Assembly: GCF_964204645.1 (NCBI RefSeq)
Contig: NC_134034.1
Location: forward strand, 8,444,962 to 8,508,961
Source of the DNA: Tubulanus polymorphus
Lineage: Eukaryota; Animalia; Nemertea
Length of the DNA: 64,000 nucleotides
Direction: 5' to 3'
Under the pieces are notes generated by a model that saw only the letters and a list, made by a program, of their open reading frames with translations, was not told the origin of the DNA and did not search any database. Below are positions 29,326 through 60,739 of the stretch, in pieces. The position numbers were made by a program, and so were the translations under genes. How positions within the stretch are numbered: the stretch's first letter is position 1; each line of letters begins with the position of its first letter.

Positions 29326-29727
29326 ATCAGTCCAAACACAACATTAAACCTTACAAACTTTTTTTTCTATTTTCCATCCATTAATCATAAATTACACGCA
29401 TCTCGTTATTTCTCATTACAACCTAAACTCAATTCATTTACATTCAATCATTTTTTTAGTTTTTTTTCTAATATGTTTGTTGATTCTGTTGGATGCGAAC
29501 GAACGAAAGTCACCAATTATACTTAAACAGTTTCAACACTTTTAAACTACTTCCACTTGATCCATTACGCGAATACACAACACTATTACAACTTCGGATC
29601 ATTACGAAATTATTATTTTGTGGTTCTTTAACAACACTAAATATCACTGATAATTGTTATACATATTTCATCTATATTACGTATTCCTTTATTGTTTTAT
29701 TTCTCCATCTTATTACTCATTGTTATC

Positions 29728-30690
29728 GAATTACACTGGTCCGGTTCATCGTTTAATTGTGGTTCTCGACACTGAATTACGCTGGTCCGGTTCATGGTTT
29801 AATTGCAGTTCTCGACACTGAATTACACTGGTCCGGTTCATCGTTTAATTACTGTTCTTGACACTGAATTACACTGGTCCGGTTCATCGTTTAATTGCGG
29901 TTCTCGACACCGAATTACACTGGTCTGGTTCATGGTTTAATTGCGGTTCTCGACACTGAATTACACTGGTCCGGTTCATCGTTTAATTACTGTTCTTGAC
30001 ACTGAATTACACTGGTCCGGTTCATCGTTTAATTGCGGTTCTCGACACCGAATTACACTGGTCCGCTTCATCGTTTAATCGCGGTTCTCGATACTGATTT
30101 ACACTAGTCCAGTTCATCGTTTAATTGCGGTTCTCGACACTGAATTACACTGGTCAAGTTCATCGTTTAATTGCGGTTCTCGACACTGAATTACACTGGT
30201 CCAGTTCATCGTTTAATTGCGGTTCTCGACACTGAATTACACTGGTCCGGTTCATCGTTTAATTGCGGTTCTCGACACTGAATTACACTGGTCCGGTTCA
30301 TCGTTTCATTGCGGTTCTCGACACTGAATTACACTGGTCCAGTTCATCGTTTAATTGCGGTTCTCGACCCTGAATTACACTGGTCCGGTTCATCGTTTAA
30401 TTGCGGTTCTCGACACTGAATTACACTGGTCCGGTTCATCGTTTTATTACGGTTCTCGACACTGATTTACACTGGTCCAGTTCATCGTTTCATTGCGGTT
30501 CTCGACACTGAATTACACTGGTCCGCTTCATCGTTTAATTGCGGTTCTCGACACAGAATTACACTGGTCCGGTTCATCGTTTAATTGCGGTTCTCGACAC
30601 TGAATTACACTGGTCCAGTTCATCGTTTAATTGCGGTTCTCAACACTGAATTACACTGGTCCGGTTAATTGCGGTTCTCGGCACTGAATA
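29728..30690. repeat. 46-bp minisatellite, about 21 copies
   Basis: GAATTACACTGGTCCGGTTCATCGTTTAATTGCGGTTCTCGACACT head-to-tail, no spacers. Confidence 0.96.
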
Positions 30691-30919
30691 ACGTGAACTT
30701 CAGCCGAGTAATCACTGCGCATTGGTTTGCATAGAACCAAATTGTTTTAACATAACTGCACTGCATTGGTTTACACGGAATTCTACTGTTGTGAACAGAA
30801 CTGTTTTTAAGGTTTCAATCGCATTGGCTCGATCTCAATCACTATCCTATAGATGCAAAGTGTTGGTTCAATGAAATAGCAGACTCTCAATTTCTACTGC
30901 ATGTGAATCTCAACAAACG

Positions 30920-32145: not shown

Positions 32146-32484
32146 ATGAACTGCAAGTCACCAGATGTTTTAAGTCTGCTGAAGCTGAGTTTGGTTGGTA
32201 TGTGAGTAGTGGATTTCATTCAGGAGCTGATTAATTACTGATTACTGCTTCCTCTGATGTTATTGTTGTTGTCGCTGGTTCTGTCGTCTTTCTGTTGTCT
32301 TGTTGATTTACAATATGTTTTTTCTTACAATATTTGTTTTTTTCTTACATCATTTTTTTTTCTTTCAAACAATAATTATTCTTCCTTTTAAATTTAAACA
32401 ATACCTTTTTTGATCAAACAAGACATCAATATTTTGATTATTTAGAAACTAGGAATTACTGAATTGAGACAATCAAATTTCGAC

Positions 32485-32825
32485 AATTAGAGGTTTGGTC
32501 CATGATATTCAAATCAAAGATTTTCTAATCTTCACAATTAACAGGTTTGATTCGTGATATTCAAATCAAAGATTTTCTAATCTTCACAATTAACAGGTTT
32601 GGTTCCTGATATTAGAATCAAAGATTTTCTAATCTTCATAATTAACAGGTTTGATTCCTGATATTCAAATCAAAGGTTTTCTAATCTTCATAATTAACAG
32701 GTTTGATTCGTGATATTCAAATCAAAGATTTTCTAATCTTCACAATTAACAGGTTTGGTTCCTGATATTCAAATCAAAGATTTTCTAATCTTCATAATTA
32801 ACAGGTTTGATTCCTGATATTCAAA
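32485..32825. repeat. 52-bp minisatellite, about 6.5 copies
   Basis: GATATTCAAATCAAAGATTTTCTAATCTTCA(C/T)AATTAACAGGTTTG(A/G)TTC(G/C)T. Confidence 0.93.
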
Positions 32826-32979
32826 AAACTTTTCATTCAAAATTCCTTTAATGTTCATAATTAGAAGTTTAGCTCCTGATTTTTTAATCAAGACATGAAA
32901 ATCTTGACAATTGACAGGCTTTATTCAGGTTTGATTTTTAACCGACGCAGTTTTTTCAAATGTGTCTTGAGACAAATTA

Positions 32980-41019: not shown

Positions 41020-41329
41020 GTCTTCAGTTTCTTATCATTATCTTTGTCAAAATAATCTTCACCTAAAATTCATATTTCTAATATAACTTTTAGATTTTAA
41101 ATGTTCTTTATAATATCTTTTATCACTGAATGATTGATTACATGACTGTTTCACATTTGTATGTTTCTTTTTCATTCTTTAATTCATCTAATTTAGTTTC
41201 TAATATATCATCTTTATATTCTAATTTCAATTTATTTTCTAAATGTGTTCTAGTTTCATTGTGTCTTGCTTTTTGAGATTTATCTATATCAATTTTACAT
41301 GTTGAACAGTAGTACTTATTTGCTTCCAT
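41020..41329 (-). pseudogene. pPolB: pPolB N-terminal fragment (zinc fingers)
   Basis: MEANKYYCSTCKIDIDKSQKARH; homology continues to ~41020. Confidence 0.88.
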
Positions 41330-41372
41330 TTTAATATCCAATTTTTTATTAAAATTGATTTTACATATTTTC

Positions 41373-41726
41373 TTATTCGAAATCTATTTCATGGTGCCCT
41401 TTTTCATACTTACCTTTGTATATGAAATAGAAATCACCAGAACATAATTCTTCTAAATCTTCACTTGATAATCTATGAAATCTATCTGGTAAATATGTTC
41501 TGAATTTATATGTATTTCCTTTTAATCCTTCATATTCTAAGTGGATAACTAATTTATCTCCATATTTGTTAGTAACTGTATCAATATTTGTAATTAGATA
41601 TTTCTTATGAATTGTTAATTCTGTAAACTTCTTAAATTTATAATCTACAGATTTTACATTTGTGATATCTTTAATTCTATCTAGAAATGATTTGTTGTTC
41701 TCACTGTGTACTTGTTTACTCTCCAT
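41373..41726 (-). CDS. MESKQV protein, possible OB-fold ssDNA-binding protein
   Basis: Intact homolog of 46584-46925; the function is inference only. Confidence 0.75.
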   Translation of the reverse strand: MESKQVHSENNKSFLDRIKDITNVKSVDYKFKKFTELTIHKKYLITNIDTVTNKYGDKLVIHLEYEGLKGNTYKFRTYLPDRFHRLSSEDLEELCSGDFYFIYKGKYEKGHHEIDFE

Positions 41727-42380
41727 TTTAATAACATATTTTTGATTAAAATAAATTATGGAAGTTATTAGATTAATATTTTAAGAGTAATAGGGAATAA
41801 GTTGTTCTAGATTAAAGGTTGAGAGGTTGAGTGAGTAGAAAATGAAAAATAAATTCGAGTGTGCGAGAATTTATTTACTCACATGTAAACTTACTTACAT
41901 GTAAATGCAGAATTAAATCAGAAATATATTTAAAGCCGAGGTATTCAACTAGACTCCAGTAGACAGAACCAGCAAGGCAGGCATTTTTCTTTTCTATCAA
42001 AATGATTTAACCTGAAATCATAAGATAGTAGAAGTCATCTGCATCTATATTCTACTGTAACTCTTTCGGCAACCACATACAATGTCCTTGGACGATTTGT
42101 GGATAATTTGTTATGTTATTTTGTATGATTATGTATACAGAATGTAAGATATATATATGGTTAAAAAAACAAACAACATCATCGGCACCAGTAGATTGTG
42201 TCAATCGCCGAGCGAGATCTCAGGGCTAGTTTAGTACCCCAATTTAGTCTCTTTTTTCGTTGTGTGATTGATGGCGGGTTCGCATCACACGCGCGCGGCA
42301 CCGGTATATTGCGCGATTCCCGGCGGAACCGCGCCATAGTGGGACACCGACAATACGTGCATGCAGTGCGGATAGCTATT

Positions 42381-42626
42381 AGTAATAGGGATAATGGGCT
42401 TTTTAGCTTGAAAGCCCATTATCCCTATTACTCTTAAAATATTCACATAAATGAATAACATTTAAATCATTGAACTTCTAAAATCAATTTTAATAAAAAA
42501 TATAGTATTAAAATGGAAGCAAATAAGTACTACTGCCCAACATGTAAGATAAGTATAGATAAATCCCAAAAAGCAAGACACAATAAAACTAAAACACATT
42601 TAGAGAATAAATTGAAACTAGAGTAT
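42381..42626 (+). repeat. Left TIR of copy B with a collapsed 52-bp hairpin (42381-42432)
   Basis: Reverse complement of 60278-60739 apart from the deleted hairpin centre. Confidence 0.92.
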
Positions 42627-45600
42627 AAAGATGATATATTAGAAACTAAATTAGATGAATTAAAGAATGAAAAAGAAACATACAAATGTGATACATGTAA
42701 TCAATCATTCAGTGATAAAAGATATTATAAAGAACATTTAAAATCTATAAGTCATATTAGAAATAAGAATAATGATATTTTAGGTGAAGATTATTTTGAT
42801 AATGATAACGATAAGAAACAGAAGACAATTAAAAGAATAAAAAATAAATTAAACAATAAAAGACCATACATGGAAGATGTAAGAAATTATATTAATTCAT
42901 TAGATAATAAAAAAGATATAGAGATAACCGAAGCATTTAAAAGTGATATTGGTCCAGCAGCTATCGAGTTTAAATTTCATAAAGGTAAAACAATAGAAGA
43001 AAATAAAAAACATTTAGAAAATATGAAAGAAATAATAAAAATAATTACAAACGTAGAATATCCAAAAATTAGTATATCAGTTAAAGTAAAAATAAAATCT
43101 GAAGATAAACCAATATATAATATAAATTCTCATTCACAACATATTATATCTAAACAACATATAGATGATAAATTAAATAAATGTTATAATGAAATAAAAA
43201 CTAAAATAGAAGAGAAATATTTTGAAGGATCTGGTTTAATATTTGATGAGATAATATTTATAACTTTACATGTTTATAACACAAAATATAATAAGTTAAC
43301 TAAATCAAAACCAATTGATGAAAATAATTTATCATATTATAAAGAACCAGATATTGAAGCATCAAGTTATATTAAACTACCATTTAAAACTAATGCTGTA
43401 ATAAATGTACAAAATGAAGATGATAAATGTTTTCTATGGACAATTATAAGTTGCTTACACCCAGTTGAAGATTATAAACAACATAGTTTTAGATTAACTC
43501 ATTATAAACAATTTGAAAATAATTATAAGATAGATAAGTATCCTGTTAGAATTAAAAATATTCCAAAAATAGAAAGAGATAATAATCTAAAAATAAATGT
43601 ATTTGATTTAATCAAATTACCAAATACAAAAGGAAATAATATTAAACATTATACATTAGAACCTTTATACCTATCAAAAGATTATGATTCAAATGATGTT
43701 ATAGATATACTATATTATGAGAATCATTATATGTGGATTAAACAAATAGATTTATTTTTTAGAACAGAAAATGATCACCATAAAATATATCTTTGTAGAA
43801 AATGTTTACATAGATTCAGTAATGAAAGTACATTATTAAATCATAAACAACTATGTGATAATCATGATTATTGTAAATTAGTTTTACCAAATGAAAAAGA
43901 TAAAATATTAGAATTCAAAAAATATGATTACAAAAATAAAGTACCATTTGTAATATATGGAGATTTTGAATCATTAAATAAAGAACTAACTGATCAAGAT
44001 AGAAAAGATATATATTATAAAAGAAAGAAATTAAATTCTAATGAAAATGATATAATTGATTATTCAGATCCTATAATAACAAATACTATTAAAAAGATCT
44101 ATCAAAGTGCTGCAGCTTTCGGGTTATATATTAAATCTAATTATCCAGAACTAATTGAAAGTGAATATTATAATTACAGAAATGAAAATGTTATCAATCA
44201 TTTTTGTGACTTATTAATTGAATATGAAATAAGATTTAGTAAATTATTGAATACAAATAAAGAAATACTTATGACAGAAGAAGATAAAGAAGAATTTGAG
44301 TTTGCAGATAAATGTTATTATTGTGAAAAGATATTTAATTATAAAGATAAAAAAGTAAGAGACCATGATCATTTGAATGGAAAGTTTAGAGGCGCTGCAC
44401 ATGAGAATTGTAACTTACAAGCTAAGAAAATTAACTTTGTACCAGTTATATTTCATAATCTATCAGGATATGATGCGCATTTATTCATCAAACAGTTATG
44501 TCATAAAATAGAAGAAATCAATAATGAAATAGAAATATTAAATTCAAATAGATCAAAAGATAAAATACCAACTTATAAATTTAGAATGTTAGCTAAAACA
44601 TCTGAGAATTATATATCATTCCAATTTGGTTGTCTAAGATTTATAGATTCATATAGATTTTTAAATAGTTCATTAGATAACTTATCAAAATCATTAGTTG
44701 ATGATGAATTAAAGATATTAAAAGAATATTACCCAAATAATGATGATTCTAAATTAATGAGATATAAAGGAGCGATTCCATATTCTTTCTATAAAAATCA
44801 TAATGATTTTAACATAACTGAATTATTAAAAGAACAATTCTATGACGAATTAAAAAATGAATATGTTAAAGATGAAGTCTATAATAGAACATTGAATATT
44901 TGGAATCATTTCAAAATAGAAAATCATGGGCAATTAGTAGATTTATATTTAAAATCAGATGTATTATTATTAACCGATATATTCGAAAGGTTTAGAGATG
45001 TAAACCTAAAATATTTCAATATTGATCCTTGTCATTGTTATTCATCACCAGGATTAACATGGGATTGTGGATTAAAATTTACAGATATAAAAATGGATTT
45101 GTTAACAAATATAGATCAATTACTATTATTTGAAAAATCTATAAGAGGAGGTGTTTCAGGTGTATTGGGTGATAGATATTTCAATGTAAATGATAATCCT
45201 GGATATAAATTATTATACATAGATGCAAATAATCTTTATGGTTGGGCAATGATGGAACCACAACCTTATGGGATGTTTGAAATAACTGAAGTTTTACAAC
45301 GTGAAAATAATGATGAATTTGATTGGAAGAAAAGAATTCTAGATATTGCAGATGATTCAGATATTGGTTACTTCTTTGTTGTAGACTTGGAATATCCTGA
45401 AAATATTAAATTCAAATCTAGAAATCTAGCTTACTGTCCCGAACATAAAACTGTAACTCATGAAGAATTATCAAATTACCAAAAAAGAATTAAACCCGAA
45501 AATCATATTCATACAGAAAAGTTAATGGTAACTCAAGAAGATAAATATAATTATGTAGTACATTATAGAATGTTGAAGTTTCATTTGAATCAAGGAATGG

Positions 45601-46555
45601 TATTAAAAAAAGTACATAGATATATTTCATTTAGTCAATCGAAGTGGTTAGAAAAATATATAGATTTTAACACCAAACAGAGAACTGAAGCTAAAACTGA
45701 TTTTGAGAAAGATTTCTTCAAGTTAATGAATAATGCATTCTATGGTAAGACTTGTGAAAATATTAGAAATAGAAATGATATTGAGTTAGTTAGTAATGGT
45801 AAAAGGATAAGGCATTTACAATCATATCCTAAGTTTATAGGTAACAGAATATTTGATGAAAATTTAGCTGCAGTTAAGATGAGAAGAACTTCAATGAAAT
45901 TTAATAAACCGATTTATGTTGGAGCTGCAGTTTTAGAATTATCAAAATTACTAATGTATAAATTTTACTATAATATACTACAACCCATCTTGGAGAAAAG
46001 AATATAGAAATCTTATATTTTGATACAGATTCTTACATATTAAAGATAAAAACTGATAACATAACAGATGATTTAAAAACATTAAAACATCATTTTGATT
46101 TCAGTAACTATCCTAAAAATCATGAATTGTTTAGCAATGATAATAAAAAAGTTCCTGGGAAGTTTAAGGATGAATTAGGTGGTGAAGAAATGATAGAGTT
46201 CATTGGTATTAGATCTAAAATGTGTTCATATAAAACCAAAACTCATGAAGCTAAAAAGTTAAAAGGAATTACCAAAAGCGTTGTTGAAAAGAATATTCAT
46301 TTTAAAGATTACATCAATTGTATATTTAATGAAGAAGTTAGAAAACATAAGATGAAATGTTTAAGATCTGAAGATCATGAAATGTATATTGAAGAGATAG
46401 AGAAGATAAGTTTGAATCCATTTGATGATAAAAGATATATTTTAGATGATGGAATTCATACAGTCGCCTATGGTTGCAATTTAGATGAATATATAAAATT
46501 CAAAAGAGAAGAAACAAAAGAAAATGAGATTATGAAAAGGATTCTAACGTGTTAA
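42513..46555 (+). pseudogene. pPolB: Protein-primed DNA polymerase B with N-terminal C2H2 fingers and an endonuclease VII-like insert; single frameshift near 45985
   Basis: 1164-aa ORF with Exo motifs YGDFES, FHNLSGYD and YLKSDV; CYYC..RDHDH..GKFRGAAH..CNL; motif A YIDANNLYG; motif B KLMNNAFYGK. Motif C YFDTDS lies in the next frame (~46015), continuing to 46555. Confidence 0.95.
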
Positions 46556-46583
46556 TCAATTTCAATAAAAATTTGTATAATAA

Positions 46584-46925
46584 ATGGAGAGTAAACAAGT
46601 ACACAGTGAATTCTTAGATAGAATTAAAGATACTTCAAGCGTCAAATCTGTAGATTATAAATTTAAAAAACTAACTGAGTTAACAATTCACAAGAAATAT
46701 TTAATTACTAACATTGAAACAATTACTAATAAATATGGAGATAAATTAGTAATTCATTTAGAATATGAAGGATTAAAAGGAAATACATATAAATTCAGAA
46801 CATATTTACCAGATAGATTTCATCGATTATCAAGTGAAGATCTAGAAGAATTATGTTCTGGAGATTTCTATTTCGTATACAAAGGTAAGAATGAAAAAGG
46901 GCACCATGAAATAGATTTCGAATAA
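46584..46925 (+). CDS. MESKQV protein, possible OB-fold ssDNA-binding protein
   Basis: Present in three copies; FKKL.EL...Y.I...NKYG...YLP.RF beta-rich pattern; adjacent to pPolB; function inferred. Confidence 0.75.
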   Translation: MESKQVHSEFLDRIKDTSSVKSVDYKFKKLTELTIHKKYLITNIETITNKYGDKLVIHLEYEGLKGNTYKFRTYLPDRFHRLSSEDLEELCSGDFYFVYKGKNEKGHHEIDFE

Positions 46926-46942
46926 GAAAATATGTAAAATAA

Positions 46943-47698
46943 ATGGTAGAATTAAAAGAATACAGAATATTTGTAGATTCTAGAAGGCTTACAAATTATA
47001 AATCACATAATTTACTAGTACAATTAGATAGAGAATTTAAGAATTGTGTAGATTTAAAATTAGTTAATATAAGTTTATGTAATTCTTTTTATAATATATC
47101 GGATAAAACTTTTGAACATAGAGGGTGTATGATTTATATGAGAAATAAAGATAAATGGTTTCATATATTTTTTAAACCAGGATTATATAATTTAGAATCA
47201 TTAGCGCAGGAAATTAATAGAAGAGCTCGGTTGAAAATCGGGGGCACTTCTGTATTTGAAATTAAATTTAATAAAATTGATAGTACTAATAAAATAAGAA
47301 TAAAGATATCTAATGAACAACATAAATTTATGGTAAACAAACCACTGGCTAAAATGTTAGGAATTAAACCGCTTACAGTTACTGGAAACGCAGAAGGCAG
47401 CTCAAATATAATACCTTTTACACACTTTTATATTTATTGCAATTTAATCGAGCCTACAAAAACTTTCGAAGCAACTAAAGAAACAATTTGTAGTTCTAGT
47501 ATACTAAATATTTTACCGCTAAAAAATGTTAAACAATTTGGAACTCAAATAAATTATTATTTAACAGAATGTGATTTTAAACCATGCATTCCTAAATTTA
47601 ATAATTTTAAATTAGAAATAAGAAATCATAATGGATACTTAATTGATTTAAATAACTTTCCTGTGATATATGAATTAGTTATAAGATGTAAAGAGTAA
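46943..47698 (+). CDS. mCP: Minor capsid (penton) protein, single jelly roll
   Basis: IFVDSR..., SFYNIS, PGLYN, FYIYCNLIEP, EIRNHNGYLIDLNN pattern typical of Polinton/virophage pentons. Confidence 0.8.
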   Translation: MVELKEYRIFVDSRRLTNYKSHNLLVQLDREFKNCVDLKLVNISLCNSFYNISDKTFEHRGCMIYMRNKDKWFHIFFKPGLYNLESLAQEINRRARLKIGGTSVFEIKFNKIDSTNKIRIKISNEQHKFMVNKPLAKMLGIKPLTVTGNAEGSSNIIPFTHFYIYCNLIEPTKTFEATKETICSSSILNILPLKNVKQFGTQINYYLTECDFKPCIPKFNNFKLEIRNHNGYLIDLNNFPVIYELVIRCKE

Positions 47699-47714
47699 TT
47701 TTTTCACTATATAA

Positions 47715-48068
47715 ATGAATATAACTGTCGGACCGAGTATATGTTTTGGATTTGATTTTAAACGTGAGAAAGAAATGAAATTTAACGTTAATGATGTAAT
47801 TACACATATTAAAAATATTGCATTTTCTAATGAAACAACATTTGAGTATGAAACAACAATTGATAAAGAAACTTTTAATGTAGAAAAGATTACTAATTTA
47901 ATTAGAGAATCTTTAAGATTTTATGAATTAGATGAAGATTTTATCATCGATGATATTAAAAAAATAATAATTGAAATATATGATAATCATAAAACTAGTA
48001 ATGAAATAAATGTTGAATTAATCATAAATAAGTTAACTAAATATTTTGAAGATAGTAATTTTTTTTGA
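47715..48068 (+). CDS. Hypothetical protein
   Basis: TAAATG start; homolog in copy A. Confidence 0.75.
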   Translation: MNITVGPSICFGFDFKREKEMKFNVNDVITHIKNIAFSNETTFEYETTIDKETFNVEKITNLIRESLRFYELDEDFIIDDIKKIIIEIYDNHKTSNEINVELIINKLTKYFEDSNFF

Positions 48069-48075
48069 TAAATAA

Positions 48076-48297
48076 ATGAGTGATAATAAGTGGATAATAA
48101 CTGGATTATATAATGGCGCATTACTATCAGTTGGAACTGTTGGTTATTCAATGGTATTAAAAAAAGTATTTAAAATGGGAAGTGTTAATGTTGATAGATT
48201 TGATATAAATGATATTTTAAAATTAACATTAGCAGTTACTTTATCTAATTTAACTATTGATTATTTAGAAAAACAAAAATATATTCCTCCCATATAA
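48076..48297 (+). CDS. Small hydrophobic protein
   Basis: TAAATG start; conserved in A; two hydrophobic segments. Confidence 0.8.
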   Translation: MSDNKWIITGLYNGALLSVGTVGYSMVLKKVFKMGSVNVDRFDINDILKLTLAVTLSNLTIDYLEKQKYIPPI

Positions 48298-48322
48298 ATG
48301 CATAATTTTTTTTGTTAAATAA

Positions 48323-48745
48323 ATGGCTTCTGCAATTATAACTATTATAGGATCGGCAATTGTTAACGCTTTAGCATTTACTGGTGGTGGTTATTTATTT
48401 AAACATATTGATAAAAATAGTTCATTAGGAGAACAAAGAAGACATAACTTAGCGTTAGAGAAATACAATAAAGCTGCAGAAGAATATAGAGAAAAGAGGC
48501 AAAACTATATGGATTACATCAATAAAGAATTATATGATCAGAAGATTTCACATAGAGATTTTCAATCAGTTGATGATGCAATGAGTTTATATAACACAGT
48601 AACAAATAAAGAAAAATTACATCTATACAAACCTAAATTATCAGATTATTATACCCCAAGTAAAGAACAACAGAAATATGAAATAATATGGATTTTAGGT
48701 GGAACTGTTATTGTTATATTTGTTGCTTATAAGTTTACTAATTAG
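48323..48745 (+). CDS. Conserved protein with Gly/Ala-rich hydrophobic N-terminus, coiled coil and C-terminal TM
   Basis: Intact in A and B. Confidence 0.85.
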   Translation: MASAIITIIGSAIVNALAFTGGGYLFKHIDKNSSLGEQRRHNLALEKYNKAAEEYREKRQNYMDYINKELYDQKISHRDFQSVDDAMSLYNTVTNKEKLHLYKPKLSDYYTPSKEQQKYEIIWILGGTVIVIFVAYKFTN

Positions 48746-48764
48746 TAATTTTTTTTCTAAATAA

Positions 48765-49199
48765 ATGGAAGTAAAAGTTGATAATATTGATATTATTCCT
48801 CATGATATAAATAAAACTAAATTAAAAACATATTTAGAAAAACAAATATTAGAATTTGAAAGTGACTTAAAGATAAAAAAGAAAAAATATTTAAAAAGTA
48901 AAATTATATATTATTTGATTATAAGTGGTTCGGTTACAATTAGTTCTGTAATAACATTTCTAGCAATATTCAGTCCATTAACACCTTTAGCTATATCAAT
49001 TGGTGTATTAGGATTAAGTTCAAGTGTTTTAACAGGTATAAGTTCAAAATTAAATATAAAAAGTAATAAAGAAAAAATTAAAACTAATATAAAAGAAATT
49101 AATAAATTAAAGAATACACTAGATTATATAATAAGTTTAAATGGTCATATAACAGTTGAAGAACAAGATAAATTATTAAAAGAATTAATAAATTATTAA
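48765..49199 (+). CDS. Two-TM membrane protein
   Basis: IIYYLIISGSVTISSVITFLAIF and LAISIGVLGLSSSVL helices. Confidence 0.82.
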   Translation: MEVKVDNIDIIPHDINKTKLKTYLEKQILEFESDLKIKKKKYLKSKIIYYLIISGSVTISSVITFLAIFSPLTPLAISIGVLGLSSSVLTGISSKLNIKSNKEKIKTNIKEINKLKNTLDYIISLNGHITVEEQDKLLKELINY

Positions 49200-49215
49200 T
49201 TTTTTAATTATATAA

Positions 49216-50517
49216 ATGGGGTTTCCAAAAGCTTTCCAATATAATAAATCAATTAAATATAATATTCCGGCAATAGATTTTAAGAAAAATATTACATATA
49301 AAAATATAGTTTTAAATTCATTAACTAATTTAGAAATTTATGTTAATGAATCACAGTTTTTTATTTCTAAAATGGAAAATATATTTAATACATATGAAGT
49401 TACTTTTACTCGAGATGAATATCATATATATAAAGTAAAATCTAATATGAAATATTGGCAGAATCAATTAAATTTTGCTGTTTATTGTGCAACAACAGGT
49501 TGTGGAATTAGTTGGAATGATCATTTAAATAACTTAGATAAAAATTTGAAGTATTCTGATTTAAAATTAATTCACACAATATTTAGATTTCACACATATT
49601 TTCAAATCAGAATAATATTAAATGAATTAGAATGTCCTTTACCCGGGTCTAAATATTTTAAAGAATTAGATAATAATATCAATATATCCAAGTTTTATAA
49701 AATATGTAATGAATTTAATATAAATATTAATTCCGATTTTAGAGCGCATGGTAAATTGCAAGGTGTTGTTGAAGAGTATGAAATAAAAAGAATTGATTAT
49801 ATGCATAGAATTTCAGCTTATCATAATTATAAAATTGATAATAATAATGGTTGGGTTAATTTCATTTTAGAAAATGGTGAAGGTTTTACAAAATCAGGTA
49901 TACAAAGAATAAATCAATCTATTAGAATTTATTTGATATGTATTTTAGGCGCTCAAGTTGAAACAAGATCCCCAATAATTGGAAATGATAACACTTCATT
50001 CGATGCGCAGAAACAGTTTAAAGTTTTATTTGAAGATTCCATACATGATGATAAAAATAGATAGATTCCAGAAAACATTATAAGATATCAAAATTATTTA
50101 GATAAATCACATATTAGATTAAATTATTGTATAGGCCCTAATCTATTAATTATTTCTAATGATTTAGTATTAAAGATGGGAAATATAATTGGTTATAATA
50201 ATCTAATTAAAACTGCAACAATAAATAATTCATTTGGATTAAATGATATAAATAAAAAGATTATTACTGCTCCAAAATTAATGGAAGGTGAAAAAAATAA
50301 AAAACACATTCAATCAACAGAAACTAAAACTAAGAATATTAAATTGGATAATGATTCTAAAATAAAAGATTACAATACATCAGAAAATAATAGAACTGAT
50401 AATATTCAACATGATATAATTAAACTAAATGATGATAATAAATCCCATGAAAATACTAAATTAGCTATAACTTGTATAGGAATTGTAATCGGAGGAATAT
50501 TATATTTTAAATTTTAA
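49216..50517 (+). pseudogene. Conserved ~430-aa Polinton protein with C-terminal TM; one in-frame TAG at 50062
   Basis: The 282-aa and 113-aa ORFs are in the same frame; copy A has TCG (Ser) at the stop position. Confidence 0.85.
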
Positions 50518-50533
50518 TTTTTTTATTATATAA

Positions 50534-51995
50534 ATGGATGAAGAAATTCCATTGGATGCTTTTGGTGACGCCCCTGGTATAAGTGATGAACCACAACCTG
50601 ATTTTAATGAAACTAATATTGATAATGATGATGAATCAGCATATAATTCTAATTTAGCAGATAGTGGTTCTAAAGCCCCATCAACAGATGAATTTGATAG
50701 AAGAACTAGATCGAGAATAAATCCTGAAAATGAAAATCAAGGTTTATCAAGACAAAATTTAGAAAATATTGGATTTATATATAAGTTTCAACATGTATTT
50801 AAAGATTCTGGATATAATATAAATAATAGAGGCGCCAGACTTTTAGTACAAGATTTAAAGTTTTTAGATGGTGAATATTATTATCGTGTGAAAGAAAAAT
50901 CGGATTATTATATTAATATCTCTAATAAAAATCAAGACAAAATAGTAGCAAAATCAACTTTGCTTAAGTCTGACTCATTACTATCTAGAATTAAAAGAAT
51001 AAGTAATAGTAATGAAATAAAAGATGTAACACAAGAAGAAATTATTAAAAATAGAAAATTATTTAAACAAAGAATTAATGAATTATTTGAAACAATCAAA
51101 GATAATCCAGAAACAGAAACAACTTCTGAACAGAATATAACTTCCAAAACTAGTAAACTTAAATCAAACACTGAAGTTCAAACTGAAAAACTTTTACCGA
51201 ATGGATTACTTGATGCAACAGATCAAGAAATAGAAGCTTTAAGTATGTTTTCTAAAAAAACAATTAGAGAAATAATAAGTATACGAAATGATGCCGATAA
51301 AATTGCTCGCGAAAAACATATTAGATATAATAAAATTAAACCTTTAGAAAATAAATTATTTGACACCAGAAAAGAAATAGAACAATTAAAATTAGATAGA
51401 GAATTTAAAGTTATTGAAGAAATTGAATTTAAAAAAAGAAATGCATATTTAGAAAAAGAAATTGATGATTTAGAATATAACATAGAATTTCAGAAAGAAA
51501 AAATGAAATTATTATTAAAATCATATGATTATTGTATTAATAGATTAAAAGTTGTTGTTAAAGAGTTAATACTAAAACCAAATTCTGACATATCACTAAA
51601 AGATAGAATAAAATTATTATTTAAGTTTGAAGGAATAACAGTTCTTTCAATTCTAACTAGCTGTAACTATGTTATTTACAACAATTGGTTTAGCAATATC
51701 AAATTCACTGAAATCTACTCCTATTCCTACTCCCAATAAACCAGATAAACCTCCAGGTAATAATTCTATACAAGATAAAGTTAAGGATGGTTTAAAGAAA
51801 TTAGCAAAATATTTATGGGAACTATCAAAGAAATCTGCTGCAGCATTGCCAGGAGTTATTGCATCAATTGTTGGTTTTATATTGAAATCTGCTGGGAATA
51901 TTCTTAACTTTGCTGCTGAACATATTATTTTATTTTTAATTACAGTTGTAAGTGCTATTATTTTTGGTTTAGTTAATATGATTAAAAATAAATAA
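50534..51995 (+). pseudogene. Acidic/coiled-coil protein with C-terminal TM helices; 1-nt insertion near 51657
   Basis: CTAACTAGCTGT versus CTAACAGCTGT in copy A joins the 401-aa and 108-aa ORFs. Confidence 0.82.
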
Positions 51996-52015
51996 TTAAT
52001 TTTTTTGTTAAATAA

Positions 52016-53263
52016 ATGAGTGGGAGTTATATAAGTCCTTCGAAGAATCATAGAATATCTAATGCTATTAAAGCAGAAAGATCACATCATATAATTACTC
52101 ATAACCCTTCAAATATTAATCCCGATGAAACTTTATATGTTAGAATTCCTAGATTAACACAAAATACTTTTTATGTTCCAAATAGTATTTATTTATCAGC
52201 TGATATAAAAGTAATCGGTAATAATAATAATTATGTTGTTGATAATGTTGGAAGATATTTGATTAAAAAGTTAACAATAAAGATTGGTCCGGAAACGGTT
52301 TTCTCATTAGATGATTATAATTTATTTATGCATTATAAAGATTTATGGTTAACTAAAGAAAATAGAAATAATATGATATTTCAGGGTATTCAATCAGAAA
52401 ACCAAAATAAATTAAGATCAGAAGCTAATAGCGCAATATTAACTAATGATGTAGATAAATTGATAAAAAGTATATATGGAAACAAATATAAAATTCCATT
52501 AGACTTTGAATTGATAAATAATAATGCACCTTTATATAAATACGCAATTCAAGAAGATATTATATTTGAGATAACATTTGCTCCTGTAAATGAAATTGTA
52601 TTATCTAGCGTTGTTAAAGATATGAGTTATAAATTATCGAATATATGTTTAGAATATGATACAGTAACTGATGAAAATATTTCAAGTATAATTCAAACTC
52701 AATACAATCAAGGATTTTCATTATTATATGATTATATTGATAAATTTAAAACTGTAACTATTAATGCAAATGATGAAATAATTAATGAGAATATTAACTT
52801 CCCTAGAAGATCTATTAAAGGTATATTAATATTTTTTACCATTGGAACGTATACTAATGGCGCAATAAATGTTGATAATTATTATAATCCAGAAATAACA
52901 AAAGTAGAAATAACTATCGAAGGAATAGCGAATAAAATATTCTGTCAAGGAATGAGAATGATTGATCAATGGGTAGAAATTAAAAAACATTTTATGAATG
53001 AAAAAGTGAAATCATCTGAAAATTGTAACATTAATCAAATTGATTATTATACCGGTAATAAATATGCATTATGGTTAGATTTTAGAACAACTGAATATAA
53101 TTCATTACATGGTTCTGGAAAAAAACTACAGAACACTAAAGATGGAATACAATTATTCATGACAAAGAATAAAGGAATCAAAAATTTTAAAATGCACATT
53201 TATATTATATCTGACGCGCAATTAAATATTGTAAATTCACAATTAGATAGTGTTATGTATTAA
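52016..53263 (+). CDS. MCP: Major capsid protein (probable double jelly roll)
   Basis: 415 aa, beta-rich; ITHNPS..P.ETLYVRIP, LSNICLEYD, INFPRRSIKGIL, YYNPEITKVEITIEG; size, position and high A/B conservation. Confidence 0.78.
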   Translation: MSGSYISPSKNHRISNAIKAERSHHIITHNPSNINPDETLYVRIPRLTQNTFYVPNSIYLSADIKVIGNNNNYVVDNVGRYLIKKLTIKIGPETVFSLDDYNLFMHYKDLWLTKENRNNMIFQGIQSENQNKLRSEANSAILTNDVDKLIKSIYGNKYKIPLDFELINNNAPLYKYAIQEDIIFEITFAPVNEIVLSSVVKDMSYKLSNICLEYDTVTDENISSIIQTQYNQGFSLLYDYIDKFKTVTINANDEIINENINFPRRSIKGILIFFTIGTYTNGAINVDNYYNPEITKVEITIEGIANKIFCQGMRMIDQWVEIKKHFMNEKVKSSENCNINQIDYYTGNKYALWLDFRTTEYNSLHGSGKKLQNTKDGIQLFMTKNKGIKNFKMHIYIISDAQLNIVNSQLDSVMY

Positions 53264-53295
53264 AATTTTAACTTTAATAAAAAATCTTATATTAA

Positions 53296-54534
53296 ATGGA
53301 AGGTGGAATATATGAAATACAAACTTCAAGTGAAATGATATCAGATATATATTATATATTACCTTATGATGAATACAGTAAGTATTTTGGAGATTACTTT
53401 AATCAATTCAAATATAGAATAAGTAAAATAGATAAGAATATTGAAACAAAAATAGAAGATAATATTGAACCTAAAATAGAAGATAAGAATGAAACTAAAA
53501 TAGAAGATAAGAATGATATTGAATATAAAATAGAAGATGATATTGAACCTAAAATAGAAGATAAGAATGATATTGAATATAAAATAGAAGATAAGAATGA
53601 TATTGAATATAAAATAGAAGATGTAACAGGATATGTATCTTATAATATACCCTCTACAACATATGATATTGAATCAAAAAAGACAAATGAAAAATATTGT
53701 GACGTATGTAAACAGTATAAAAGTTATAAGAATTGGGCAACTCATCTTAATTCACTCAAGCATAAGAAAAATAAGAATAAGATTTTAAATGAATTGAATA
53801 ATGATAGTGAAATTGATAATGATAATGTTAAAGAAGATAAATATTGTGAAGAATGTGATAAATATATAAGTCGTAGTAATTTTTCAAAGCATAAATTAAC
53901 ACAGATACATTTGGATAATATAGAAAGAAATATATGTGAAAAGTGTAATGTTGTTGTATTACCTAAAGATAGAATTAAACATGATAATTCTTTTGAACAT
54001 ACAATAAAAGCTGCTGATTTAAATATCCTTTATAGAGCACCAAGTGCATTTTTTGATATCGAAAATAATGATCATAGGAAATTATATAGATCAATTTTTA
54101 TCGATTATGTAAGAAATAATCCAAAACAAGTATTATCAGATCTAAAAACTCGTCGGACGATTATAAAAATTTATCTAAATAATTATTGGAGTATACATTA
54201 TTTCATAAAATTTAAAAATATAGATTTTTTAACAGAATTGAAAAAAGTTGCTGCTAATGATAATATAAGTGATAACTTTGATGAAATAATTCAATACTAA
54301 AGTTATGAAGATTTTTCACAGGATGTTATAAATAAAATAAGAAATGAAGCAAAAAATGAATATAAAAATATAAGTGAAGACAAATTAAACCAATATATTT
54401 ATTTAACTTATGAATTCTGGGTTAAGGGTTTGAATAGTAATGGTTATCATTTTAAACTGTTAGGTGAAAGAAGATCGCAAGAATTAAGAGATGCATGGAG
54501 CAAATTGTTTTCAGAATTAGAATCAGAAAAGTAA
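53296..54534 (+). pseudogene. Zinc-finger protein with KIEDKNDIEY repeats; TAA at 54298 followed by 77 more in-frame codons
   Basis: CDVC..H..H, CEEC..H..H and CEKC..H..H; the frame stays open to TAA at 54532-54534. Confidence 0.72.
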
Positions 54535-54554
54535 TTTAAAATATTAATATAATA

Positions 54555-55172
54555 CCCTTTGTGTCTTTATTGTCTTTAGTAGGTTTAGTACTTTTAGTAC
54601 ATAAAGAATAAATCTTTATTTTATAAGTAGTGAATAAAATTATTTTTAAAACTACTAAACTACTAAAGACAATAAAGACATAAATATATATATAACACTG
54701 TTTCAATAATTATATTTATTCATCTGATGGATTTTATATATTACTGTTTCAATAATTAAATCTATTTATCACACATATTTATTATATATATCATAGATTT
54801 ATCATTTATAAAAATTATTTATATATTTTATTTTTCTAAGTACTAATTAAATAAAGATTTATTCTTTATGTACTAAAAGTACTAAAAGTACTAAAGATAA
54901 TAAAGACATAACAAACACATATAGATGTAATAAATATCATAAATTTATTTATCTTACAGATTTATTATATATATTTGATTCAGTAATGATAAATCTATGT
55001 GTGTTTGTTGTGTCTTTATTATCTTTAGTAGTTTAGTAGTTCTATTTTATTTTATTCACTACTAATAAAATAAAGATTTATTCTTTATGTACTAAAAGTA
55101 CTAAACTACTAAAGATAATAAAGACATTAGGGGAGGTATATAATACATATCTAATACATATCTAATACATAG
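54555..55172. repeat. Central nested inverted repeats at the convergence point of copy B
   Basis: TGTCTTTATT.TCTTTAGTAG.TTTAGTAC arms at ~54562 and 55011; inverse arms at ~54651, 54851 and 55068; TAATACATATC repeats next to the ATPase stop. Confidence 0.85.
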
Positions 55173-55184
55173 GTATACAAATAG

Positions 55185-55799
55185 TTATTTTATAAATTTA
55201 TATTCATATGGAAATTGTAATCTCATAAGTAATTTGGAACCTTTATCATTCTTTAATTTATTCATATATTCATCATGTAATTCAGTAGGTATAATTTGAT
55301 TTTCTTCTAATGATTGTTGCATAGATTTTCTATCTTTGTTGTAGAATAAAACTAGAAATCTTATATTCTCTCTAAAGTCTTTCACAATTGAATTATATTT
55401 CTGATTTAAAACCCATGTTGTTATCCCAAAATGTCTACCAGAGAAAGCTAAATAACATAACTCACTTTCTCTAATTTTAGAATCATGTAAATTTGCGCAA
55501 TCATCAATAATAAATAATGTTTTAGATCCTTTATAAATATCTAATGCAATTTTTATACAATTATCTAAATTATCTTTTACTGTTTTAGAATTTAATATAA
55601 TAAACTTTTTATCTTTAAAAACTATATCTCTATTATACGTTTCATTCATTTCATAAGTTGGGCAGAATAATATTATATTATCGAAATGATTTTTATAAAT
55701 AGTTTCTAATAAATCTAATATGAAGTGTGTTTTACCACAATTTGTAACTCCAGTTATTAACATATTATGTGGTTCAAATATAAACAAATCTTTATTCAT
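55185..55799 (-). CDS. A32/FtsK-like genome packaging ATPase
   Basis: GVTNCGKT Walker A, LFIIDD Walker B, SGRH arginine finger, LNQ and FREN motifs. Confidence 0.92.
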   Translation of the reverse strand: MNKDLFIFEPHNMLITGVTNCGKTHFILDLLETIYKNHFDNIILFCPTYEMNETYNRDIVFKDKKFIILNSKTVKDNLDNCIKIALDIYKGSKTLFIIDDCANLHDSKIRESELCYLAFSGRHFGITTWVLNQKYNSIVKDFRENIRFLVLFYNKDRKSMQQSLEENQIIPTELHDEYMNKLKNDKGSKLLMRLQFPYEYKFIK

Positions 55800-56877
55800 T
55801 TATTCTTTTAATTTTACTAGATAAAATCCATTCATTAAATTTATCATCATATCCTTTATATTTCACCAAAGAATATTTCTTACCGCGTAATGTTTTTGTT
55901 TTCAATACTTTTTCTATTTTGTATTCTATTTCATCTGGATTTGGTACTAATGATAATTCTTGTTCATAAAAATAACCTAATATTTCTTCATCTTTTAAAT
56001 CAAACAATTTATAAACAAATGGTTTAGTTAATATTATCTTTTTAATTTTAAATATTTCTTCTGTAAAATTAGGGGTATAACCTTTATAAAATGTTTTTCG
56101 ATATTTAGAAATTCTAACATGTTGTCCTATTTTAAATTTAGGTTCTCCAAAATCATGTGTAACAAATGCTCCATATAAATTATTCCAAACTATTTCTGAA
56201 TTTTCTTCTTTTCTAGCTTGTATAGGTTTCATATTTATAGAACTATGTTTAGAATTATTATAACCTTTCACTAAATCATCTAACACATCGATATATTTAT
56301 ATGTTTCATTAGCGGTGAAATATTTCCACATTCTAGTTTTCAATGTTTTATTAAATCTTTCTATAACAGATGCTTTTTTATCTGAATGTGTTGAAAAATA
56401 TTCTACATCGTTATCAATTAATAGTTTTTTGAAATGTTTGTTATAAAATTCTTTACCTTCATCAAATTGTATTTTATCTCGGATAGCTTCTTTAAATATT
56501 AATTTGAAAGAATTTGTAACTTCTATACCAGTTTAATTTTTAATCGGGATACTCCATGCGTATCTACTGAATATATCTATAACATTTAGTATCCAAAAAT
56601 ATCCTTTGTTATATTCTTCTAAGTTTTTCATATCAATTAAATCAGCTTGCCATTGTTGGTCAATATATGAAACCATTACTTTTCTTGTTAAATATTTTTT
56701 ATCCATCTTTTTATGAATTTGATATGTGGGTTGATTTTGTAACCATGATTTTAATTCACTATATTTCATATTGCTATTATCAGATTTAATTTTATTCCAT
56801 AATTCCGAAACACTTGAATATGACACTTCACTTTCTGGGTTGTAATATAACGCTCTTAAATATTGTTCTTTTTTCAT
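55792..56877 (-). pseudogene. INT: rve integrase with chromodomain; single frameshift near 56535
   Basis: DDE motifs QADLID, FDEGKEF and IERFN; C-terminal chromodomain. Confidence 0.93.
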
Positions 56878-56883
56878 CTTATT

Positions 56884-57270
56884 TTAATCCATTAATAATA
56901 TTTTAGATTTATTTTCATTTGATTTATGATTTGACTTATTTTCTGGTATGATAGGTTTATTGTCATTGGAATCATCTTTATCATCAGATTTGAATTTATG
57001 TTTATATATTACACCGGATAATATAATAACTGTTACTAATCCAATTGTAATATATAATTTATAATTACTTCCAGCATTAGAAGAATTAGATGGATTATTA
57101 TTTGAATCAATACCACCGTGTGGGTGCTGTACGGCACCATCAGGTGATTCATTTATATCAGTTAATTTCTTTTTCTTAGCTTTTTTTAATTCTGATGATC
57201 TTTTACCTAATTCTCTTGCCCATTTAATTTGTTTCTCTGATCTAGCCTTTTTCTTAACTCCATCACTCAT
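56884..57270 (-). CDS. Small basic TM protein
   Basis: Homologs in A and C. Confidence 0.8.
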   Translation of the reverse strand: MSDGVKKKARSEKQIKWARELGKRSSELKKAKKKKLTDINESPDGAVQHPHGGIDSNNNPSNSSNAGSNYKLYITIGLVTVIILSGVIYKHKFKSDDKDDSNDNKPIIPENKSNHKSNENKSKILLMD

Positions 57271-57865
57271 TTATTTTAGTTAATTTTTGTTCTGATTCAT
57301 TTTCTGTTTCACTGTTTGGTTGTAGTACATCTGTTTCGTTCTTACCTGATTTATATTCCATAGGTTTGATGTTCGAAAATGTAATGACACCAGTAGAAAT
57401 TAATGTCATAACCGATCCTAATTGAAATGAAGCATATCCAACCCATTTTTGTAATTCAGTCATAACTAAATAGTCATTTTTCAAATCATTATATAATTTA
57501 TTTTCATCATCAATTGGTATTAACTGGTTACATAACTTAGAATAACATTTTACAATACCATCTGAAATAGAATCATTTATTCTAGCTAATCGAGCTTCTT
57601 CATAAATCTTAAAATATTTTATTACTTTTTCTTTATTCATATTATCTAATTCTTGAAAAGTTATTGTTTTACCAATAAACTCTTTAGTTTTTCCACTCGC
57701 AATCAATAGTTCTAGATGATGCTTACAATATAAATAGTATTCATAATCTATATTGTTATTAACTTGAATAGAATTAGAAACAACTGTATCTTTATTATCA
57801 CTAATACCTAAATCATCTAATGTCTTTTCAATATCAATACTATTCTTATTAGATTTCTTTGACAT
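57263..57865 (-). CDS. Conserved Polinton hypothetical protein
   Basis: 200 aa, intact in B and C. Confidence 0.85.
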   Translation of the reverse strand: MSKKSNKNSIDIEKTLDDLGISDNKDTVVSNSIQVNNNIDYEYYLYCKHHLELLIASGKTKEFIGKTITFQELDNMNKEKVIKYFKIYEEARLARINDSISDGIVKCYSKLCNQLIPIDDENKLYNDLKNDYLVMTELQKWVGYASFQLGSVMTLISTGVITFSNIKPMEYKSGKNETDVLQPNSETENESEQKLTKINE

Positions 57866-58140
57866 TTATATTAGAGAAAAAAAGCAAAAAGAATATTATA
57901 AGTATTCTTCAAATGATACTAGTATCTCTTTAGGTTAATACTAAATTGACTAGGTTAGTTAAAGTTAAAGAATTTCTATTCAAATCTATTCAAAATCTAT
58001 TCAATCTAATGTCAATTAGAATTACCAAAAGAAAATATTAAAAATATAACAGAATTCACTAGCTAGTTGAAGTTATTGTTTTTTTATTATATTTTATTTA
58101 AATTAGGATTTAGATTATCTCACTACTATTGTCTATCTAT

Positions 58141-59260
58141 TAGGAGCAGTAATTATAACTGTCCAGATAAGTCATTTCGGATCCTCGATAATAAATCCTT
58201 AACTGAAAATAAATTCAAAGAAACGACTGGTGGAATTACTATTTCATAAACACATATATTTATTATGTAAATTTTAGCGATCGATAATAGAACAATGGAG
58301 AACAATAGAAATGCGGTCCAATCGGACCGGTTATTGCGCAATACACAGTTATATTTTTATTCTGTAAACTACAACATTCACACATAGAAATGTAAACAAT
58401 ACAATACAGAACAACCGCCGCCATTAACATCGATCAATAATAGAACAATGGAGAACAATAGAAATGCGGTTCAATAGGACCGGTTATTGCGCAATACACA
58501 GTTAACAGTAAACAATATAATATTAAAACAGATATATACAATCGAGATTACATTTTTGATATCTATATTACAAAGACCTTCAGTGTTATAATTTATAATT
58601 TTGTCCAGAATTCTTTAATTACTGGATTGTTTCCAATCATTTCTTCAATTTCTAGTAAATATCTGACTACTTCACTAAATGCTAATCCTAATATTTTGAA
58701 TTTTTCATATTTTATTAATCTACCTACTCTTCTCAGTTTTCTTTCAAAACCGGCACTGATATCTCCACTCATTTTCTTAGTTTTCGATTATTTGAGTCCC
58801 AACAGCAATTTAAGTCGCGTTGCTGGTAATTTTGGTAATTGTAGTTCGCGCGGTAATTGTTTATTATGTATTACATCACTCAGAATTTTCACCATTTCTT
58901 GATGATAGTCCAAATGTTCTTATAATTTTGTGAAGTTTGTTCGTCAATTACGAGTTTCATCCTCCATTTCTATTGATTCCTGAGTTTCACTATCCAGTAG
59001 CATCGTTCCTCATCCGTTGGTTGGCTTAGAATTTCTGGTTGATCTCTGTATTCCATTTTAATCTAAAAGATGTCGTGAAAATGAATTACTGTACTTAAAT
59101 ATGTTTAAAGGTTTCCCTACTTCATAATATATGTACTTACATTTAGATCTAGAACTGTAAACTGTGTTTTGAGAGAGAATATCCAATACGTACTATGTAT
59201 GTGAAAGTTGATTTCTAACTGCCGACGTGGCGCACGTTCGACCAAACTAATTACTTCTGC
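58141..59260. other. Copy-B-specific ~1.1-kb insertion downstream of HNH
   Basis: Flanks CACT.CTATTGT and ACAGATGTTC are near-contiguous in copy C (~62163-62200); absent from A; contains a ~70-bp direct repeat (58279-58351, 58432-58504). Confidence 0.7.
58593..59056 (-). pseudogene. Decayed cargo gene of unknown function
   Basis: TAAAATGGAA start; MEYRDQPEILSQPTDEERCYW... then, after stops and a frameshift, ...FERKLRRVGRLIKYEKFKILGLAFSEVVRYLLEIEEMIGNNPVIKEFWTKL*. Confidence 0.55.
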
Positions 59261-59394
59261 ACAGATGTTCTTTATGATGAAGTTAATTAATTCTTTAGAA
59301 TTGAAAAAAAGATATATTTGGCAACATATGTTTTAGTAGTAAGCAAAAGCTATGTATTATATACATACAAAGCTCAAATAGAATTGCCAGCTTT

Positions 59395-60060: not shown

Positions 60061-60139
60061 TTATTATACGTATTTTTTTACTAAATTGGTTAATAATTTT
60101 AGAATCCTCTTCCATTTCTTCGACCAACGTCATCCTTTT

Positions 60140-60391: not shown

Positions 60392-60739
60392 TTTAATACT
60401 ATATTTTTTATTAAAATTGATTTTAGAAGTTCAATGATTTAAATGTTATTCATTTATGTGAATATTTTAAGAGTAATAGGGATAATGGGCTTTCAAGCTA
60501 AAGGTTGAACGTGCGGGTGAGTAAAAATGAAAAAACATAAAAATAATTACAATTTCTACTTGAATTAGGAGTGAAACTCATAAAATGAAAAATTAATTCG
60601 AGCGTGTGAAAATTAATTTTTCATTTTTATGAGTTTTGCGAGTAATTCAAGTAGAAATTGTAATTATTTTTATGTTTTTTCATTTTTTACGAGCTCGACC
60701 GTTCGACCTTTGGCTTGAAAGCCCATTATCCCTATTACT
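60278..60739 (-). repeat. Right TIR of copy B, including a 268-bp terminal palindrome (60472-60739)
   Basis: AGTAATAGGGATAATGGGCTTTCAAG...CTTGAAAGCCCATTATCCCTATTACT. Confidence 0.93.

Follow-up and report, generated by a model that had tools for sequence, protein, structure and literature searches.

Promoter mimicry is a molecular signature that ties virophages, as well as polinton-like viruses (PLVs), to a giant-virus helper, and it has so far been documented for mimivirid helpers in protists. Mavirus is described as copying the late motif of CroV and Sputnik as copying that of mimivirus, while PgVV-14T is described as carrying the AAAATTGA early motif of its helper before replication genes. 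Among the endogenous virophages of Cafeteria, only those with CroV-type promoters are reported to be reactivated by CroV. In 2024, PLVs were reported from inside entomopoxvirus occlusion bodies (Barth et al., PMC11296320), and one of them is described there as integrated in a beetle genome; the word 'promoter' does not occur in the paper. Our literature searches turned up no paper in which Polintons, Mavericks or PLVs are connected with TAAATG or with promoters of poxvirus type. In this study, we analyzed a 64-kb stretch of contig NC_134034.1 of Tubulanus polymorphus, referred to as the window, and in particular element B (42402–60502, + strand), an 18.1-kb Maverick/Polinton-like integrated virus recognized by its terminal inverted repeats (TIRs), gene content and composition. 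The genes of B are preceded by two classes of short motif, one with an A-run (A-type) and one with a T-run (T-type), which share a TAAATG initiator at the start codon. The motifs are placed exclusively at gene starts, have a fixed spacing, are conserved in diverged relatives and are absent from distant ones. We consider it plausible, if somewhat short of probable, that they are compact promoters likely read by a co-infecting poxvirus-like helper, the A-type as intermediate-like and the T-type as late-like promoters. We rate the finding as putative helper-promoter mimicry of the kind known from virophages, in which the poxvirus type and the presence of two classes are new.

The AT-rich parts of the window are copies or fragments of one element family, four in all and 87–96% alike: copy A, which is degraded (1 to ~15000), an inverted fragment (41131 to ~41730), B itself and the start of a copy C (60503 to the window end). 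A preliminary description of the window had listed nine A-run sites before the genes for a protein-primed family B DNA polymerase (pPolB), a 113-aa protein designated MESKQV, an HNH/endonuclease VII-like protein and a C2H2 zinc-finger (ZnF) protein. All nine sites (108, 42513, 46584, 4469, 61330 and 53296 on the + strand; 41329, 14882 and 60060 on the − strand) proved to carry A[AG]TAAAAA, a gap of 8–14 nt and [AT]AAATGGA directly before the start codon. When both strands of the window were searched with A[AG]TAAAAA N8-14 [AT]AAATG, ten matches were obtained, the tenth being the copy in the right TIR at 60391(−), and 10/10 lie at the start of a pPolB, MESKQV, HNH or ZnF frame. Each of the ten frames begins with Met-Glu, just as had been claimed for the genes of this class.

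In B, predicted A-type promoters precede pPolB (42481–42512, +; the site singled out in the preliminary description), MESKQV (46552–46583, +), ZnF (53264–53295, +; conserved in the relatives L001, L002 and L005) and HNH (60061–60092, −). Copy A has corresponding predicted promoters before pPolB (76–107, +), before MESKQV in the form of a terminal-repeat copy (14883–14914, −) and before HNH (4437–4468, +), where a second A-run core lies just upstream. The two remaining predicted sites precede a pPolB 5' fragment in the inverted element fragment (41330–41361, −) and the HNH gene of copy C (61298–61329, +). B alone gave five A-type matches, 5/5 of them at open reading frame (ORF) starts; 100 dinucleotide shuffles of it yielded 0.44 on average, and 0.05 if GGA was included in the pattern. 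Neither the A-type nor the T-type pattern had any match in the 25-kb non-element stretch between the copies.

The ten A-type sites are not independent: each is a paralogue or a terminal-repeat copy, all come from the four copies or fragments of a single element family, and at most four distinct genes stand behind them. The two ends of copy A show the same predicted terminal-repeat promoter, which stands before pPolB on the left and before MESKQV on the right; the upstream sequences of 108(+) and 14882(−) do not differ over 70 nt. Nor can the predicted promoters of MESKQV and HNH be counted as two independent cases, because their upstream regions share remnants of the pPolB 3' end. These duplications, together with the 87–96% likeness of the copies, would also be expected if the recurrence reflected only a functionless copy-and-paste of one terminal-repeat-derived segment among paralogous copies. 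We regard this explanation as very improbable: the core is kept in L001, L002, L005 and L003 although the flanks are unrelated and the genes downstream are either different or highly diverged, and all of the ten window matches and four matches in relatives lie exactly before ORF starts.

The T-type motif showed the same exclusive placement. The pattern T6+ N3-9 TAAATG had 17 matches in the window, and 17/17 lie at the starts of eight other gene families, including that of the capsid protein; B contributes 8 matches, 8/8 at the start of an ORF, where shuffles of it gave 0.57 on average. The predicted T-type promoters of B precede p117 (47690–47714), p73 (48051–48075), the membrane proteins p140 (48298–48322) and p144 (48740–48764), p282 (49191–49215), p401 (50509–50533) and the major capsid gene (51991–52015), all on the + strand, and p200 on the − strand (57866–57890). 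The T-run was also considered as a terminator of the preceding gene; this was ruled out because the T-run of p200 (57865, −) follows 1.5 kb of non-coding DNA. The initiator itself is enriched: TAAATG is found at 14/18 curated gene starts in B versus 56/709 ATGs overall (Fisher P 1.7e-13), and of all 7-mers upstream of ORFs, ATAAATG is enriched most strongly (37/57 upstream windows).

Base counts were taken over 20 T-type and 8 A-type sites, B and relatives together. In the T-type, each position from −16 to −12 is T in 19–20/20 sites and −3 is T in 20/20, and all sites read TAAATG with an ATG start. The A-type sites have A at −17 to −13 in 7–8/8 and T at −23 in 8/8, with TAAA or TAAAA directly before or overlapping the ATG in 8/8. 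The spacer from the run to TAAA is 5–8 nt in the T-type (mode 6, n=20) and 7–11 nt in the A-type (mode 9, n=8). The opposite base composition of the two sets bears out the earlier proposal that there are two distinct upstream classes.

The T-type geometry closely matches that of published vaccinia late promoters. PMC5294985 describes them by a T-containing core that is separated by 5–7 bp from TAAAT(G/A), the latter lying on the start codon, and the account of promoter classes in PMC11980589 gives TAAATG, an upstream preference for T and, ten nucleotides upstream of TAAAT, a T that is conserved. Entomopoxvirus late genes, too, are described as using TAAATG (PMC3061580). Judged by sequence, the T-type sites agree in having TAAATG on the start codon, an upstream T-rich core and a spacer of 5–8 nt, and position −13, which corresponds to the 10th nt upstream of TAAAT, is T in 20/20 sites. 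They differ in that the run is a tighter homopolymer (T6–T9) than the loosely T-rich vaccinia core, and in that they sit in an 18-kb Maverick-like element without RNA polymerase or transcription-factor genes.

The A-type bears a looser resemblance to vaccinia intermediate promoters. According to the same section of PMC11980589, these have TAAA, an upstream A preference and no T at the −10 position, which agrees with the contrast between A-preferring intermediate and T-preferring late promoters on which the preliminary description had relied; PMC12917281, where it treats intermediate promoters, gives TAAA at −1 to +3, a spacer of ~12 bp (one helical turn), and an AT-rich core that spans −26 to −13 and has no defined consensus. 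The A-type shares the bipartite layout, the upstream A preference, TAAA at the start codon and the lack of T at the 10th nt upstream, whereas its core is a defined sequence and its spacer is only 7–11 nt. Because the spacer is shorter and the core is a defined sequence, the proposed likeness to intermediate promoters holds for the layout and the A preference, does not extend to the spacing, and is better described as resemblance than as membership.

Since the search patterns had been written after inspecting B, the relatives L001, L003 and L005 served as an independent test. Relatives were taken as 80 loci from one metagenome scan with the capsid alignment. In the four AT-rich loci with 70–77% capsid identity (L001, L003, L004 and L005), TAAATG occurs at 27/36 ORF starts, and 13/14 T-type and 4/4 A-type matches are placed at ORF starts. 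The A-type core is kept before a syntenic post-capsid gene in L001, L002 and L005, although the flanks differ and the encoded protein is 29% identical to ZnF or has no detectable similarity to it. Eight relatives at ~50–56% capsid identity have TAAATG at 22/38 ORF starts. By contrast, the gene-start system of B is absent from the distant family members examined: across 62 of them TAAATG occurs at 14/829 ORF starts, with no pattern match at an ORF start. The motif is thus present down to ~50% capsid identity and absent at 41% or less. The GC-rich distant relatives L018, L024, L029, L031 and L055 have a recurring string of their own, TTCAAAATGGC, at some gene starts, which hints at a different lineage-specific start signal. 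A scan of IMG/VR with the A-type pattern returned 65 loci, none with the system; as 0/21 T-type matches in them lie at ORF starts, we treated these loci as chance matches. IMG/VR contained no relatives of the capsid protein, with either a single sequence or an alignment as the query.

Motif class tends to follow the gene family. Across the AT-rich genomes, the capsid gene is T-type in 5/5, p200 T-type in 4/4, the post-capsid gene A-type in 3/3 and p128 A-type in 4/4; nine families keep one type across genomes, namely capsid, p200, p73, p140, p144, p282 and p401 (T-type) and ZnF and p128 (A-type). When pooled, the capsid-block genes and p200 comprise 20 T-type starts and 1 A-type start, and the other genes 11 A-type, 1 T-type and 7 with neither (Fisher P 7e-7, with gene groups chosen post hoc and orthologues that are not independent). 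The wording of the preliminary description that the A-type marks replication-type genes stands in part. The class includes pPolB, a replication gene, and the HNH nuclease, but only pPolB is demonstrably a replication gene, and the class of several genes varies among relatives, as described below.

Several points weigh against a poxvirus-type reading with two functional classes. Upstream of the likely penton gene, L003 shows a canonical A-type motif and L008 a T-type one, and the A-rich sequence at this place in B fits neither pattern. The class is switched in the MESKQV homologue of L003, in the HNH homologues of L001 and L015 and in p117 of L003; the integrase and HNH starts of L001 are T-type, though they were filtered out of the pooled gene-family count. 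In L009 and L016, a single dA:dT tract is both the T-run of the capsid gene and the A-run of the divergent gene, so that A versus T may partly reflect orientation. The A-type spacer is shorter than the vaccinia intermediate spacer. The rve integrase of B with its chromodomain, as well as the many nuclear copies, would also fit a nuclear life cycle. Finally, the DNA polymerase gene of poxviruses is an early and not an intermediate gene, and here the A-type motif precedes pPolB.

Some of these points would be explained if there were one promoter system and no temporal cascade, in which TAAATG does the work and the orientation of the dA:dT tract sets promoter strength or serves divergent genes. 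Such a system would account for L008, L009 and L016, where one divergent intergenic region of 27–35 nt contains a single tract that provides the T-run of the capsid gene and the A-run of the opposite gene, and for the three gene families that switch class between relatives. It also fits the ATPase, integrase and p113 genes, which have neither run, the ATPase gene still having TAAATG. However, no divergent pairing is seen for the A-type sites of B and of its close relatives, the A-type has a longer conserved block (T at −23 in 8/8, A at −17 to −13) and a spacing unlike that of the T-type, and the type is constant per family for nine families. On balance, we judge a single system to be unlikely.

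The position of the A-type before pPolB likewise raises the question of whether this class is early-type, that is, similar to the poxvirus early core or borrowed in the manner of the PgVV-14T early motif, and not intermediate-type. An A-rich core before a polymerase gene, the use of a helper's early motif before replication genes in PgVV-14T and the early expression of poxvirus DNA polymerase are all compatible with this. The vaccinia early promoter, however, is described as an A-rich core interrupted by TG (PMC11980589), and no TG is found in the A-type core. Moreover, the motif ends in TAAA directly on the ATG, a post-replicative feature, and TTTTTNT is neither avoided inside A-type genes (one occurrence each in pPolB and ZnF) nor placed after them (none within 80 nt downstream of any A-type gene), so that there is no early-termination signal either way. 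An early-type promoter is accordingly improbable as the explanation of the A-type, and intermediate-like remains the description that we prefer.

As to what reads the motifs, poxvirus-like post-replicative machinery would be the best-fitting candidate, because the element has no RNA polymerase of its own. Two features, the position of the motifs right against the ATG and the invariance of the T at −3, speak against a Pol II TATA box or a translation context: with a TATA box so placed, Pol II would start ~30 nt into the reading frame, and a T is unfavourable for translation when it stands at −3. We propose that an RNA polymerase machinery of poxvirus type, possibly of entomopoxvirus type, reads both motif classes, with A-type sites used like intermediate promoters and T-type sites like late promoters, and that transcription at both starts within the A's of TAAATG. 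The two classes would differ in timing, and the helper would likely transcribe the element in two stages. Infection by the helper might then reactivate the integrated copies, in the way that CroV reactivates mavirus. Plasmid assays cited in PMC11980589 imply that transfected plasmids are transcribed by poxvirus post-replicative machinery.

Alternatively, the motifs could be real promoters read by the host nuclear machinery or by another AT-rich large DNA virus, their likeness to vaccinia being convergent. The chromodomain-bearing rve integrase and the many integrated copies would suit such a reader, as would the A-type spacer, which is unlike that of vaccinia. In addition, distant relatives lie in Mb-scale contigs and do not have the motif, which makes an autonomous Maverick lifestyle the default of the family, and asfarviruses are described as also having TATA-containing late initiators (PMC5294985). 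Set against this are the abutment to the ATG and the T at −3, as discussed above, and the fit of the T-type to vaccinia late promoters on three counts (T at the −10 position, a 5–8-nt spacer and TAAATG). We therefore hold a non-poxvirus reader to be rather unlikely.

If the poxvirus-like reader is accepted, a broader scenario may be sketched, which we put forward as doubtful: an animal Maverick lineage would have turned into a poxvirus virophage, copying both post-replicative promoter classes from an entomopoxvirus-like helper and gaining transcription of its naked DNA in two waves within the factory of that helper, and its many integrated copies would act, like mavirus, as a helper-inducible anti-poxvirus defence in an arthropod. 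If true, this would extend virophage-style parasitism to poxviruses. Should a poxvirus polymerase read the motifs, TAAATG with a T-run or A-run at gene starts could flag poxvirus-dependent Mavericks in animal genomes, the clade boundary would suggest the site of a switch from an autonomous to a hyperparasitic lifestyle, and defence of arthropods against poxviruses by endogenous copies would become a testable idea.

The system resembles the promoter mimicry of virophages and PLVs in that short conserved motifs lie upstream of nearly every gene of a small integrating double-stranded DNA (dsDNA) virus, and in that the motifs are lineage-specific and the base composition is unlike that of the DNA between copies. 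It differs in that the motifs are of poxvirus and not of mimivirid type, in that there are two separate classes and in that the helper is one that we infer. The entomopoxvirus-associated elements AHEV_PLV1, AHEV_PLV2, CBEV_PLV1 and Ca_PLV1 are, in the description given by PMC11296320, likewise small dsDNA insect elements with PolB or helicase, an A32 ATPase, a jelly-roll capsid protein and terminal repeats. As far as that description goes, and the comparison is with the description only, they are ~12 kb long and the PolB-bearing ones have no detectable integrase, whereas B is 18 kb long and has an rve integrase with a chromodomain. With animal Mavericks/Polintons and adintoviruses, B shares pPolB, the rve integrase, the A32-type ATPase, the double jelly-roll capsid protein, a likely penton and TIRs; unlike them, it has no adenain-type protease recognized in Pfam or PHROG scans and has a very low GC content.

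The gene set of B identifies it as a Maverick/Polinton-type virus: pPolB, the rve integrase, the TIRs, the double jelly-roll capsid protein and the A32-type ATPase are present, and the penton is likely only. The pPolB gene (42513–46007, +) is interrupted; it encodes 1164 aa, a 121-aa C-terminal piece is found at 46190–46555, and intact relatives have ~1363 aa. More than 4900 relatives of pPolB were found, several with a precomputed PF03175 domain, and the only informative names among them came from a spider and a soft coral (37% identity). Relatives P0136–P0138 are 76–80% identical to it. Residues 1–38 form an N-terminal U1-type zinc finger, and residues 588–636 form an internal endonuclease VII-like segment that scores slightly below the Pfam cut-off. 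Intein domains are present, by precomputed Pfam annotation, in some pPolB relatives (P0147, P0171 and P0222). An atlas comparison of MESKQV (46584–46925, +) gave leads only: the clusters resembling it contain mostly hypothetical proteins of arthropods, and there was a faint match to the phi29 single-stranded DNA-binding protein (0.85).

The major capsid protein (415 aa; 52016–53263, +) has 768 relatives. Its profile had no match to PDB sequences, and hence a fold search was needed: with a model of pLDDT 83.5, Foldseek returned capsid proteins of PBCV-1, SGIV and mavirus at E 4e-17 to 1e-11. The gene for p251 (251 aa; 46943–47698, +) probably encodes the penton, or minor capsid protein; its model has low confidence (pLDDT 57.6), and the best Foldseek match was the mavirus penton (E 5e-6), followed by PBCV-1 and Sputnik capsid entries. 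The ZnF gene lies at 53296–54300 (+), and its product resembles C2H2 proteins of Nucleocytoviricota at 0.83–0.86 in the atlas, again as a lead only. The A32-type packaging ATPase (55185–55799, −) matches Pfam Pox_A32 (E 6.2e-13), and the HNH/endonuclease VII-like gene (60060–59395, −) matches PHROG 1035 (E 7e-18). The rve integrase with its C-terminal chromodomain (55792–56877, −) is split into two frames in B, whose pieces give a weak rve match and a chromodomain match and are 87% identical to the intact 359–362-aa genes of L001 and L005. B also encodes a run of small membrane proteins and larger unassigned proteins. No adenain-type protease was found by Pfam (21 proteins) or PHROGs (9 proteins), the remaining proteins not having been subjected to a profile-profile or fold search.

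GC content is 21–29% in bases 1–16000 and 42000–64000, with about 22–29% in B itself, and 31–42% in the stretch between the element copies. This middle stretch contains many tandem repeats, including long arrays with 46-, 53- and 52-nt units at 29590–30763, 18105–18581 and 32439–32854. The stop-to-stop frames of 70 aa or more that overlap 15000–41200 number 38; inspection by eye, without searches, revealed no gene in them, and one (41138–41383, −) is the pPolB N-terminal fragment. Rfam gave no match in the window. Reads of one run that we guessed to be RNA were essentially absent from the element. By genomic reads of the same species label, the element family is multi-copy, with a read depth of ~100–500 versus ~8–11 in bins unique to B.

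The noncoding DNA of B has two conspicuous regions. Between the convergent ZnF and ATPase arrays, 54550–55130 is crowded with inverted and direct repeats nested in one another, among them 58-nt arms with 98% complementarity, and has the lowest read depth of the whole element. The 1.5-kb stretch at 57866–59394 is richer in GC, carries two 74-nt direct repeats and is possibly a nested insertion.

The TIRs of B (42402–42626, + and 60278–60502, −) are 225 nt long and 99% complementary. The left repeat takes in the predicted A-type promoter as well as codons 1–38 of pPolB; in the right repeat, the same promoter precedes an 83-aa chimeric frame (60391–60140, −), residues 1–38 of which are the pPolB N-terminal zinc finger and the remainder of which resembles the C-terminal end of HNH. 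In copy A (1–120 and 14880–15010), the outer repeat sequence is unlike that of B and continues past the window start. At the left end of B (42378–42432), the 22 nt outside the element are an inverted copy of the first bases of the repeat, so that a near-perfect palindrome spans the terminus; this extension is absent at the right end. In genomic reads of the same species label, 42374 is joined to 60740 by 113 reads and 41876 to 60695 by 55, which omits the entire element along with some flank; such reads could come from insertion-free related loci or from other arrangements of the flanking repeat.

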